Positions 58,405-61,707 of a stretch of 64,000 nucleotides of DNA are shown piece after piece. Source of the DNA: Bacilli bacterium (GTDB lineage Bacteria; Bacillota_I; Bacilli_A; RFN20; CAG-288); the NCBI GenBank assembly GCA_022652945.1, contig JALCRV010000005.1, positions 83,512 to 147,511 of the forward strand, written 5' to 3'. The position numbers were made by a program, and so were the translations under genes. Each line of letters opens with the position of its first letter. The first letter of the stretch is position 1. The notes beneath the pieces were generated by a model, which saw only the letters and a program-made list of their open reading frames with translations, was not told the DNA's origin and ran no database searches.

Positions 58405-61400
58405 ATGGAACAAAAAGAATTTATCGCTTATTTTAAAGGAAATCACCATCCCTTGAAGGATTTTGCTGAGCACTTCCAGCTCAGCGTCGAAGATGCCCAG
58501 AAAGAAATCCAGATTTACCTGGATAACGGGATTATCATCGAGACCTTGAAAGGCTACATGCTTACTTCCGATTGCCGAGTAACCTTAGGCACGATCGTTT
58601 TTATGAAAGACAATTACGCTTTTATCCAACCCGTTGGCTCTTCGATGACCAAGAAAGATGACATCCGTGTCGCAGGTAAGTCGTTAGATGGCTACATCCT
58701 TAACGACAAGGTTTATTTCCAAGTCGATAACTGGAATAACGGCACGATTGTTGGTCTATATTACCGCAACAAGTATTTATCGGGCACGGTCTTTAAAAGA
58801 CCGAACGGCTCTTTCTTTTTAAAAGCCAAGCAAACCACCACCACCGATATCGATATCCATCTGCAAGATAGCCCCGCTTTACAAGGCCTGAGCGATGGCG
58901 ATTTAGTAAAATGCGAAATCATCTCGTCCGCCAGGGACGTAATTGAAGTTAGCTACGTCGAGACCTTAGCCAAGGCCTCAGAGGTTGGAGCGGATATTTC
59001 CGCTATCATCGCCTCTAATGATGCTCCTCTTACCTTCCCGACCGATGTCCTGACCCAGGCCAAGATGATCCCTCAGACGCTTTCTAAAGATGACTTAAAA
59101 GGCCGCGAAGACTATCGTAATGACGTAATTGTCACAATCGATGGGGCGGATGCCTTGGACTTTGATGATGCCGTCTCCTGCATCCCGTTTGCTAAGGGCT
59201 ATCGAATCGGCGTCTATATCGCTGATGTCTCTTATTACGTCAGACCGAATACTCCTTTAGATGAAGAAGCCATCAATCGTGGCACTTCCATCTACGTCGC
59301 TGATCGAGTCGTCCCGATGCTGCCGACCGAGCTTTCTAACGGCATCTGCTCTTTAAATCCGAATGTCGACCGTTTAGTCATGGCCGTCATTATGGATATC
59401 GACGAAAGTGGCAACATCTACCGTTCCGAGATTCATCCGGGTGTCATCTGCTCCCACGGCAGATTGACCTATCAGGAAGTCAACGAGCTATTTAAAGACA
59501 ATAAGAAAGGCGAGCTTTCGGAAGATATCGTCCAGATGCTCTTCCGGATGCATGAAGCCACAAAGAAGATCCGCTTCCTTCGTGAAAGAAACGGCGCCCT
59601 CGATCTTGATTCCACCGAATTAAAGTTCGCTCTGGATGAAAACGGCAATCCGACTGAAGTCATCAAGAGAACTCAAGGCGAAGGCGAAGACATGATCGAA
59701 GACCTGATGATCATCGCCAACGTCGAAGTCGCAAAGTTCCTCTCCGAGAAAGACATCCCGACCTTATACAGAGTCCACGACAATCCGCCTTCCGAAAAGA
59801 TCGAACTCTTCAAACAGTTCCTTCGCCAGATGAAGATGGTTCAGGACTTCCCGTCTAACGTCACCCCGGCTACTTTATCGCATTGGTTCTCTTCGATTAC
59901 CGATCCGAAAGTCCACCAGGCGGTCTCTTCCTTCCTGCTCCGCTCCTTAGCTAAGGCTAAGTACTCACCGGATAACACCGGCCACTTCGGACTCGCCGAG
60001 CCGTTCTATCTGCACTTTACTTCCCCGATCAGAAGATATCCTGATCTGATTGTCCACCGTACGTTAAGAGACTATGTCTTCAATCAGGAAACCTTCAATT
60101 ACAATCATCTTCATACTTACCTCGAAAACCTCGGAGTCCTGACCTCCGCCGCGGAACGCCGCGCCGTTGAGATCGAACGTGAGGTTGACGACTTAGAAGC
60201 CTGCAAGTATATGTCTAATCACCTTGACGAGACCTTCCAAGGTATCGTAACCGGAATCAACGCCAAGGGACTATATGTCGAGTTGGATAACGGAATCGAA
60301 GTCTTCGTCGCTTTGCGCGACATCGATCCGAACCAACGCTGGATCTATTCCGATCGCCACATGGATATTCAGAACACGGAAAGAGATGAGGATGATAACT
60401 ACACCTTCTACCGTCTCGGAACTGCCATGGAAGTCATCATCTCTGAAGTCACCATGGAGGATAAAACAATACACGCTATGACACAGAAAGCCAAAGATTA
60501 CAATCAAGCCTTTAGAAATTACGAATCAGATGTCGAAAAAGAAGACGGAGAAAGAAGCGAAAGACCGGATTATTCCAGAGTCAGACACGGTGGTTACAAT
60601 TCCCGTCCGCGTTCTTCTTTCGGCGGCGGTTACCGCGGAAAGAGAGATTCTTTCCATTCCCGTCCGTCTTATTCTTCCCGTCCTTATGAGGATGAAAGAA
60701 GAGACGAAAGAGAGCAAAACGAAACTAACGATAATCCTGCTATCGAGGAAGAAAAGCCGTTTGTCGAAGAGAATGTAAATCCGGAGACGGAAAATACTGA
60801 AACCAAGGCGGTCAATGCCGAGGAAACTAACCCGGCTCAGGAAGAATCCCAGACCGAAGAGACAGCATCCTTAACCAGATTTGTCTCCGGCAAGGATTCG
60901 ATGGATACCGCTGAGACGAAGCGAAGAATGGAAAATACTCCGCGTCGGCCTTCATTCGGCGGCCGTCGTGATTCGCATTCTTCCTATCGTGGCGGACGTT
61001 CTTCTTACGGACATGACGATCATCGTTCCTTCCATCGCGATGGTGATTCTTCGCATCGTGGTTACGGACGTAAGTCTTATCATGATGGGCCGATTGAGAA
61101 AAATCCTTCCTTCAAATACTCCGATAAACAATTCGATCTAGGCGAAACTAGCGAGAATCAAGAAGGGGGCGAAAGAAAAGATTATTCTTCCCGTTCCTCT
61201 TACGGACATGATGATCACCGTTCCTTCCATAAGGATGGGGATTCCTCTTATAGAGGCGGACATTCCTCGTACGGACATGACGACCATCGTTCCTTCCATA
61301 AGGACGGTGACTCCTCTTATAGAGGCGGGCATTCTTCTTACGAACATGACGACCATCGTTCCTTCCATAAGGATGGGGATTCCTCTTATAGAGGTGGCCA

Positions 61401-61707
61401 TTCTTCTTACGGACATGATGATCACCGTTCTTTCCATAAGGATGGGGATTCCTCTTATAGAGGTGGCCATTCCTCTTACGGGCATGACGATCATCGTTCT
61501 TTCCATAAGGATGGGGATTCCTCTTATAGAGGTGGCCATTCTTCTTACGGACATGATGACCATCGTTCCTTCCATAAGGATGGAGGTTCCTCTTATCGGG
61601 GCGGAAATTCTCGTGGCGGATATGCTTCCAGAGGACGTAGACCTTATAATAAGGACATGAAAGGTTCAGATCATGGCCATGGCGGAGAAGGACAAGAAGG
61701 CAAGTAA
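58405..61707 (+). CDS. rnr: Ribonuclease R with a ~360-aa repetitive low-complexity C-terminal extension
   Basis: The RNB catalytic domain is present (DDAVSC, YVADRVVPMLP, GHFGLAEPFYLHFTSPIRRYPDLIVHR), followed by an S1 domain, then S/Y/G/H/D/R-rich repeats. The start was placed at MEQKEF, and the track ORF starts 14 codons upstream. The 3' end overlaps smpB. Confidence 0.9.
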   Translation: MEQKEFIAYFKGNHHPLKDFAEHFQLSVEDAQKEIQIYLDNGIIIETLKGYMLTSDCRVTLGTIVFMKDNYAFIQPVGSSMTKKDDIRVAGKSLDGYILNDKVYFQVDNWNNGTIVGLYYRNKYLSGTVFKRPNGSFFLKAKQTTTTDIDIHLQDSPALQGLSDGDLVKCEIISSARDVIEVSYVETLAKASEVGADISAIIASNDAPLTFPTDVLTQAKMIPQTLSKDDLKGREDYRNDVIVTIDGADALDFDDAVSCIPFAKGYRIGVYIADVSYYVRPNTPLDEEAINRGTSIYVADRVVPMLPTELSNGICSLNPNVDRLVMAVIMDIDESGNIYRSEIHPGVICSHGRLTYQEVNELFKDNKKGELSEDIVQMLFRMHEATKKIRFLRERNGALDLDSTELKFALDENGNPTEVIKRTQGEGEDMIEDLMIIANVEVAKFLSEKDIPTLYRVHDNPPSEKIELFKQFLRQMKMVQDFPSNVTPATLSHWFSSITDPKVHQAVSSFLLRSLAKAKYSPDNTGHFGLAEPFYLHFTSPIRRYPDLIVHRTLRDYVFNQETFNYNHLHTYLENLGVLTSAAERRAVEIEREVDDLEACKYMSNHLDETFQGIVTGINAKGLYVELDNGIEVFVALRDIDPNQRWIYSDRHMDIQNTERDEDDNYTFYRLGTAMEVIISEVTMEDKTIHAMTQKAKDYNQAFRNYESDVEKEDGERSERPDYSRVRHGGYNSRPRSSFGGGYRGKRDSFHSRPSYSSRPYEDERRDEREQNETNDNPAIEEEKPFVEENVNPETENTETKAVNAEETNPAQEESQTEETASLTRFVSGKDSMDTAETKRRMENTPRRPSFGGRRDSHSSYRGGRSSYGHDDHRSFHRDGDSSHRGYGRKSYHDGPIEKNPSFKYSDKQFDLGETSENQEGGERKDYSSRSSYGHDDHRSFHKDGDSSYRGGHSSYGHDDHRSFHKDGDSSYRGGHSSYEHDDHRSFHKDGDSSYRGGHSSYGHDDHRSFHKDGDSSYRGGHSSYGHDDHRSFHKDGDSSYRGGHSSYGHDDHRSFHKDGGSSYRGGNSRGGYASRGRRPYNKDMKGSDHGHGGEGQEGK
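61190..61615 (+). repeat. Six tandem 69-bp repeats within the rnr 3' region, each encoding SSYGHDDHRSFHKDGDSSYRGGH
   Basis: The TACGGACATGA(T/C)GA(T/C)CA(C/T)CGTTCCTTCCATAAGGA... units recur at 61201, 61270, 61339, 61408, 61477 and 61546. A degenerate copy lies at ~60990-61090. Confidence 0.85.

Follow-up and report, generated by a model that had tools for sequence, protein, structure and literature searches.

Among the 3'-5' exonucleases, RNase R is the main enzyme that degrades structured RNA and non-stop mRNA, and its C-terminal tail decides where and when the enzyme acts. We have analysed the rnr gene in a window of 64,000 nucleotides (the whole stretch of DNA studied here) from the metagenome-assembled genome of a Bacilli bacterium (assembly GCA_022652945.1, contig JALCRV010000005.1, positions 83,512 to 147,511). 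Its product carries a tail of 410 residues beyond the S1 domain, which is predicted to be disordered and includes an array of six 23-residue repeats whose peptide is kept by purifying selection. In E. coli, the K-rich tail of RNase R is disordered, adds RNA affinity, is needed for the recruitment of the enzyme to ribosomes rescued by tmRNA-SmpB and has a part in controlling stability (PMC3949413); polyphosphate is another ligand of this tail (PMC12345225). In S. pneumoniae, rnr and smpB are co-transcribed and cross-regulated (PMC3534368). The intrinsically disordered regions (IDRs) of RNase E drive the formation of BR-bodies (ribonucleoprotein bodies of bacteria) and bind Cu2+ through histidines (PMC12510024), and peptides with His/Tyr/Gly repeats coacervate upon deprotonation of the histidines (PMC6884462). 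The Rho protein of Bacteroides and, at its N-terminus, the IF2 protein have IDRs that drive condensation and fitness (PMC13269538, PMC11838494). Compared with its described counterpart, the tail at the present locus is a real and selected, unusual and lineage-specific version of the short basic tail.

The open reading frame (ORF) that hosts the repeats encodes a bona fide RNase R, as the original prediction had stated. The product scored 608.3 bits against the TIGR02063 equivalog model (cutoff 597.85), and the match covered residues 28-704 of the longest possible ORF of 1114 codons (58363..61707). In the same numbering, Pfam placed CSD2 at 170-226, RNB at 248-573 (E=8.5e-107) and S1 at 622-700, in the order CSD, RNB and S1, with the S1 domain ending at about residue 704. 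The catalytic Asp cluster D266/D268/D269 and the HFTSPIRRYPD block were invariant across the alignments. The short basic tail was not found, as the region after S1 has 410 residues with 5% Lys and 11% Arg and a net charge of -11; since a short K/R-rich tail is accessory and does not define the family, the assignment to RNase R stands. The longest ORF begins at ATG 58363, a start without comparable support. The start of rnr is most likely the ATG at 58405 (MEQKEF), which gives 1100 residues, because three observations agree: a ribosome-binding site, AAGGAGA, lies at 58387-58393, 11 nt upstream of this ATG, the alignments of the relatives begin at its Met, and an identical protein starting at 58405 is recorded at NCBI (MCI2068812.1, 'MAG: ribonuclease R [Bacilli bacterium]', MAG denoting a metagenome-assembled genome). 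Residue numbers below refer to the 1100-residue protein unless stated otherwise.

The strongest tandem repeat of the window by far is found in the tail. Tandem Repeats Finder (TRF) reported an array at 61194..61611 with a period of 69, 6.1 copies, 89% matches, no indels and a score of 626, the next repeat of the window scoring 138. In the frame of rnr, the units start at 61195, 61264, 61333, 61402, 61471 and 61540, and units 1, 2, 4 and 5 encode exactly SSYGHDDHRSFHKDGDSSYRGGH. Three substitutions were found among the 138 residues of the array, G to E in unit 3 and D to G and H to N in the last unit. At the DNA level, the six units differ pairwise at 4-12 of the 69 positions (83-94% identity), and the longest exact repeat within the array has 59 nt (61363 versus 61501, spaced 138 bp). 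The locus had been described as six near-perfect 69-bp repeats, which holds for the peptide and the copy number but not for the DNA. It had also been described as an extension of 360 residues built from these repeats; it measures 410 residues, and "built from" overstates the share of the six units, which make up 34% of it. An isolated and diverged seventh copy is separated from the array by 126 bp. These observations show that a 23-residue unit was duplicated in tandem and in frame to give part of the tail and that the dispersed copy is older.

The repeat block has an unusual composition. It contains no I, L, V or M (0%), 39% S and G and 30% D, E, K and R, and an aromatic residue occurs every 7-8 positions. 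Histidine makes up 17%; its only spacings are H-x2-H and H-x3-H, and neither HH nor Cys occurs. Within a unit there are 4 His and 4 Asp, and none of them varies across units 1-5. The net charge of the block is -6 with neutral His and +17 with protonated His. Judged from sequence and structure model, the block has the properties of a sticker-and-spacer chain, being disordered, poor in aliphatic residues and rich in Gly and Ser, with evenly spaced aromatics.

The differences between the six units fall mostly on third codon positions, with 2, 2 and 13 variable sites at positions 1, 2 and 3, respectively. Sixteen of the 19 variant alleles are synonymous, compared with 21% expected for random substitutions (binomial p=8.6e-9). 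With the Nei-Gojobori method, the mean proportion of synonymous differences (pS) was 0.46 (maximum 0.75) and that of nonsynonymous differences (pN) was 0.019, which corresponds to a pN/pS of about 0.04. Since the variation is mostly synonymous, purifying selection acts on the SSYGHDDHRSFHKDGDSSYRGGH peptide, and the array is an old one; the copies have not been homogenised, and the peptide was kept while the synonymous sites drifted. The third-position bias in the rnr frame also shows that the region is translated in this frame. Two other ORFs across the array, 61138..61575 on the minus strand and 61208..61660 on the plus strand, were rejected as by-products of the repeat, the variation being concentrated at the third positions of the rnr frame.

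The whole tail consists of 15% S, 13% G, 11% R, 11% D, 8% H, 8% E, 7% Y and 5% K, with 3% I/L/V/M, 28% S and G together and 10% aromatic residues. Its net charge of -11 with neutral His becomes +22 when His is protonated. The S1 domain is followed by a helix, the PDYSR motif, a basic S/R/Y/G stretch and an acidic E/N/T block, and then by the LTRFV motif, the isolated unit, a spacer, the six units and an RGG/K-rich end. An AlphaFold2 model was built on an alignment of 85 sequences. Its predicted local distance difference test score (pLDDT) was above 90 in the core and below 50 for residues 731-834 and 842-1100, with values of 30-47 in the tail and 30-37 in the repeats. From this model, the tail is predicted to be intrinsically disordered and almost without aliphatic residues. 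Sequence searches of Pfam and PDB with the tail gave 0 matches even at E<=10, and the tail belongs to no described family. A search of a 5.8-billion-protein database with the tail alone returned nothing and also missed the protein itself, for which the low-complexity correction of HMMER is the suspected cause. With Rfam, the tmRNA gene was the sole match in the whole window, with no RNA element in the repeat and no rRNA. The composition and the array confirm that the tail is rich in His, Tyr, Ser, Gly and Asp and repetitive, as had been noted. Given also the predicted disorder, it is plausible that the tail is a low-complexity region with a phase-separating or regulatory role.

The codon usage of rnr shifts at the boundary between core and tail (58405..60430 versus 60430..61704). 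The GC content at third codon positions (GC3) falls from 0.51-0.66 in the core to 0.39-0.42 in the tail, with its non-repeat part included; for twenty other large ORFs of the window it is 0.42-0.58. The His codons CAT and CAC are used 30:3 in the tail and 7:11 in the core. Possible reasons for the shift in GC3 are a relaxed translational selection in a disordered region, the codons of the founder unit or a different origin.

Long tails were also found in the relatives. When the full protein was used in a word-indexed search, many RNase R proteins of 800-1231 residues were obtained, with S/G/R/D/Y-rich tails that often contain SYGHSD, GYGHSDRGG or RGG motifs. Since such a list is biased towards proteins that share words with the query, the search was repeated without the word index and with the core only (residues 1-690), on a set of 1.84 billion cluster representatives. 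Those that came closest, 11 with at least 500 bits, had a median tail of 215 residues (range 67-401), and 8 of them had at least 100 residues. Among the 125 representatives below 400 bits, the tails were K/R-rich with a median of 18 residues. The statement that typical RNase R tails are short and K/R-rich is thus supported by the distant hits of the core-only search, whereas the long tail is not unique to the present protein, and some of its closest relatives even have arrays of their own. At the sequence level, the long S/G/R/D/Y-rich tail, with or without His, is shown to be a trait of the closest relatives among uncultured Bacilli.

Tandem arrays of their own were found in 13 of 112 long tails, with periods of 9-60 residues and differing units. 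Such sequences show that lineages amplified different units built from shared short motifs (YGH[SD]D, FHKDGD, SYRGG and RGG). In the relative P0008 (locus L001, 77% core identity), DNA arrays of 15 and 60 bp encode the YGHSD and FHKDGD motifs. By its sequence, the 23-residue unit looks like a fusion of short motifs that are repeated separately in P0008. The relative P0005 (locus L002) has DNA arrays with periods of 66 and 45-195 bp, and all array periods in both loci are multiples of 3. In L002, eight identical 13-residue peptides GGHSFGHSSYGHS show a pS of 0.53, so that here likewise the peptide was kept with scrambled codons. Overall, the tails of the relatives range from 23 to 538 residues and differ in the period and sequence of their units, share their composition, contain 0-13% His and cannot be aligned outside the motifs.

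Several of these tails have larger or more complex repeat systems. The P0005 tail has 13% His and nested periods of 45, 75, 120 and 195 bp (L002 7306..7512 and 7685..8257). The P0028 tail has 3.8 copies of a 60-residue unit, and the tail of P0031 is 538 residues long and combines an A/K/E-rich block with GYGHSDRGG repeats; P0026 also belongs to this group. The overall picture looks like a recurrent birth of repeats across the RNase R tails of the clade. None of the literature searched described RNase R tails with His/Tyr-rich repeats, although this is no proof of absence.

Two short motifs are conserved within the otherwise variable tails. The PDYSR motif was present in 11 of 120 homologue tails, and among 10 relatives R739 of this region was invariant and D736 nearly so (1114-residue numbering). 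The LTRFV motif further downstream was invariant in 8 relatives and is encoded by differing synonymous codons in 8 loci. Since the codons vary and the peptide is fixed, the constraint acts on the peptide, as in a short linear motif. In the AlphaFold2 model, two helices (H810-827 and H833-843) cover the LTRFV motif, with a slight rise of the pLDDT at 835-841. When the GTDB genomes were scanned with the motif alignment, one species representative was found, an uncultured 'Clostridiaceae' MAG (L003); the scan of these genomes with the single protein found no relative. The search with a 57-column profile of the LTRFV motif gave nothing at E<=1, the profile being suspected to be too short for the size of the database.

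Table 1. Positions of the features discussed in the text, in window coordinates.
Feature	Position	Strand	Details
rnr (RNase R)	58405..61707	+	1100 aa and stop; TIGR02063, CSD2/RNB/S1 domains
C-terminal tail beyond S1	60475..61704	+	410 aa; from domain limits, composition and AlphaFold2
Post-S1 helix	60484..60561	+	AlphaFold2 with DSSP, H694-719; pLDDT in 10-residue blocks from 96 to 90
PDYSR motif	60565..60579	+	conserved among relatives
Acidic E/N/T-rich block	60688..60867	+	about 60 aa, net charge -17
LTRFV motif, [AS]LTRFV[SA]..DS.D..E.KR+...	60862..60957	+	conserved motif; two low-confidence AlphaFold2 helices
Isolated diverged seventh copy, SSYGHDDHRSFHRDGDSSHRGYG	61000..61068	+	16-20 nt and 4-5 aa different from the tandem copies
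Six in-frame tandem 69-bp units encoding SSYGHDDHRSFHKDGDSSYRGGH	61195..61608	+	TRF; aa 931-1068
RGG/K-rich C-terminal end, SRGGYASRGRRPYNKDMKGSDHGHGGEGQEGK	61609..61704	+	similar end in the relatives P0008 and P0002
smpB	61673..62161	+	NF003843, 199 bits; overlaps the rnr 3' end by 35 nt (61673..61707)
tmRNA gene	10941..11334	+	Rfam RF00023, 96 bits; ARAGORN; 47 kb from rnr-smpB, not adjacent

The last 11 codons of rnr lie inside the overlap with smpB. In L001 the two genes overlap by 38 nt (2483..2520), and no overlap exists in L002 and L003. The order secG-rnr-smpB-ECF is kept in L002, and smpB directly follows rnr in L001 and L003. The overlap suggests translational coupling of rnr and smpB, and the start and N-terminus of SmpB encoded in it may limit how far the C-terminal end that the RNase R proteins share (...HGHGGEGQEGK) can vary. 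Upstream of rnr lies a SecG-like ORF, whose counterpart in L002 carries the Pfam SecG domain. Just past this ORF, a hairpin (GAGGGG...CCCCTC) followed by a T-run was spotted by eye at 58263..58296 and was not listed by the pattern scan; it looks like the intrinsic terminator of secG. With such a terminator, rnr-smpB would have to be transcribed from a promoter of its own, located between about 58296 and 58386. The sole sigma-70-like match in this region (58373..58402) overlaps the ribosome-binding site and is regarded as probably spurious.

Elsewhere in the window, the tmRNA gene has a predicted tag, AKPIYHRYAPAFAAAAC, with an unusual Cys ending; a common ending of tmRNA tags is ...ALAA. Four tandem 23-bp units (consensus ATTCCGTTTAAGTGTTTGGGTCA) are found at 47191..47288. 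In the region of about 1 kb around them (46964..48044), the only ORF of at least 50 residues is one of 64 residues at 47576..47770. The units are a candidate for an iteron-like array or an array of regulator-binding sites.

With moderate confidence, we propose that the tail is a multivalent, His-titratable low-complexity module with docking motifs that replaces or extends the classical K-rich tail of RNase R. The long tail of the clade would stand in place of the classical tail or be added to it. The PDYSR and LTRFV motifs would dock a partner; candidates are the ribosome, SmpB-tmRNA and the core of the enzyme itself. The repeat block would act as a multivalent sticker-and-spacer module, in which Tyr or Phe at every 7-8 residues and Arg could provide weak contacts to RNA or to the block itself, with Ser, Gly and Asp as the spacer. 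Around pH 6-7, the four His of each unit would switch the charge of the block from roughly -6 to roughly +17. RNA binding by RNase R, its self-association (possibly in condensates) or both would then become tunable by pH and possibly by metals.

Several points weigh against this proposal. At neutral pH the tail is net acidic (-11), unlike a simple RNA-binding basic tail. Since the orthologous tails contain 0-13% His, a function shared by the clade cannot depend on His, which for the sequences at hand rules out pH sensing as the role of the tail throughout the clade. The LTRFV motif occurs in a tiny subclade only: it was found in 8 of 120 homologues, in a single GTDB species representative and in 4 loci from metagenomes. 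The test for selection draws on no more than 23 codons, compared across six copies that are not independent. Finally, beyond the statement that the tail is disordered, selected and repetitive, we infer its function.

A bolder version of the proposal would make the His/Tyr-rich tail of the clade a pH- or metal-switchable scaffold that drives RNase R into condensates of RNA decay or ribosome rescue, with the LTRFV...DS.D..E.KR motif docking to SmpB-tmRNA or to the ribosome, as the Gram-positive exonuclease counterpart of BR-bodies. We regard this as doubtful. If it is true that the His repeats confer a pH- or metal-dependent RNA binding or assembly, the tail would be a compact bacterial model for the sequence rules of condensates, and RNase R would prove to be regulated in a way that is new. 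Otherwise, it still illustrates neatly how selection has maintained an old tandem repeat in a coding sequence while its codons were scrambled. A clade with RNase R tails of 200-500 residues offers a natural experiment in the building of regulatory low-complexity regions. Its tails keep embedded putative docking motifs and repeatedly re-invent arrays of Tyr, His, Arg and Asp under selection at the peptide level. On the present evidence, the RNase R tail does not open a long-standing question.

A different function of the repeats would be the binding of metals. The His/Asp units (HDDH, H-x3-H and DGD) could chelate Zn, Ni or Cu and thereby store or buffer the metal or switch the assembly or activity of RNase R. 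Metal binding has a precedent in the IDR of RNase E, where Cu2+ binds at His and alters the behaviour of condensates (PMC12510024). At the present locus it is favoured by the 4 His and 4 Asp of each unit, which are lost at single positions in the last unit only (D to G and H to N). In the orthologous tails with 0-13% His, on the other hand, the S/G/R/D/Y grammar is kept, so His is a lineage-specific overlay. The metal-binding tails of the HypB, SlyD and Hpn-like type have clustered consecutive His, often together with Cys. Compared with these, the repeat has 17% His without HH or Cys and matches no known metal-binding family. We consider metal binding possible but rather unlikely as the explanation of the tail; it is compatible with the proposed His-titratable module and does not exclude it.

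The tail could also be a passive spacer or solubility tag, a tolerated low-complexity expansion (entropic bristle) for which the composition and not the sequence matters. This would agree with the relatives, whose tails vary from 23 to 538 residues and in period and unit, share the composition and are unalignable outside the motifs. The exact peptide, however, was kept despite a near-saturating synonymous divergence (pN/pS about 0.04), which goes beyond a constraint on composition and argues against a purely compositional, neutral expansion, and conserved peptide motifs are embedded in the tail. A passive role is therefore improbable.

The original prediction had viewed the repeats as nearly identical in DNA and hence prone to slippage. 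As a hypervariable contingency locus, the array would change its copy number by slipped-strand mispairing and so tune RNase R. Exact stretches of up to 59 nt common to units and the many independent expansions among the relatives over evolutionary time speak for this. The phase-variable type of simple sequence repeat is not what was found, as the unit has 69 nt, the copies are 83-94% identical and the mean pS of 0.46 (pN 0.019) indicates a long coexistence of the copies without homogenisation. Such a synonymous divergence with a kept peptide argues against a recent product of slippage and against a contingency locus. In addition, the unit is 3x23 nt, a multiple of 3, so that gain or loss of copies would never shift the frame. 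We consider a contingency locus very unlikely.

Equally remote is a short-read mis-assembly that created the array or its copy number. In its favour, the source is a metagenome-assembled genome, the protein occurs in only one assembly and the 59-nt exact repeat 138 bp apart could permit a collapse or expansion by two units with small k-mers. The cluster of the protein contains just its NCBI and IMG versions, both taken from a single contig of 166 kb. Against it, each unit has its own combination of synonymous variants, which makes a wholesale artefact very unlikely, the frame stays open for 410 codons, the codon-position bias fits the rnr frame and comparable repeat tails occur in relatives that were assembled independently. 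That the array exists is thus safe, and its exact copy number may be off by two units.

Compared with the K-rich domain of E. coli RNase R, the tail described here shares its place directly after S1, its flexibility or disorder, its being dispensable for the fold and its link to smpB; in position and presumed role it comes closest to this domain. It differs in length, with 410 residues versus about 90 (about 4-5 times longer), and in composition, with 5% Lys and a net acidic charge, being rich in His, Tyr, Ser, Gly and Asp and carrying the array of six 23-residue units. For residues 735-750 of the E. coli enzyme (E740/K741/K749/K750), the segment of ribosome recruitment, the tail offered no similarity that could be aligned and no equivalence of single residues, and the match to the E. 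coli-type equivalog NF008648 reaches residue 758 only, with 356 bits at a cutoff of 982.

With the IDRs of RNase E, both the microdomains of the degradosome and the C-terminal domain of the alpha-proteobacterial BR-bodies, the tail has in common that it is a long C-terminal IDR of a ribonuclease with charge blocks and with short conserved microdomains in a fast-evolving low-complexity sequence (for the architecture and the Cu2+ binding at His sites of RNase E, see PMC4435900, PMC12510024 and bioRxiv 10.1101/272286). RNase E, however, is an endonuclease and RNase R a 3'-5' exonuclease, the two show no sequence homology, and any partner or condensate of the tail described here is hypothetical. 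Spaced aromatics in a Gly/Ser-rich and aliphatic-poor sequence are also found in the [G/S]Y[G/S]/RGG domains of the eukaryotic FUS type and in the His-rich GHGxY peptides of the squid beak (PMC6884462). This likeness is compositional only, without homology. The present repeat is dense in fixed charges, with 30% D, E, K and R, and resides in a bacterial host. The N-terminal IDR of IF2 and the IDR of Bacteroides Rho differ from the tail in protein and composition, but like it they are clade-restricted disordered extensions or insertions in a universal RNA-handling protein.

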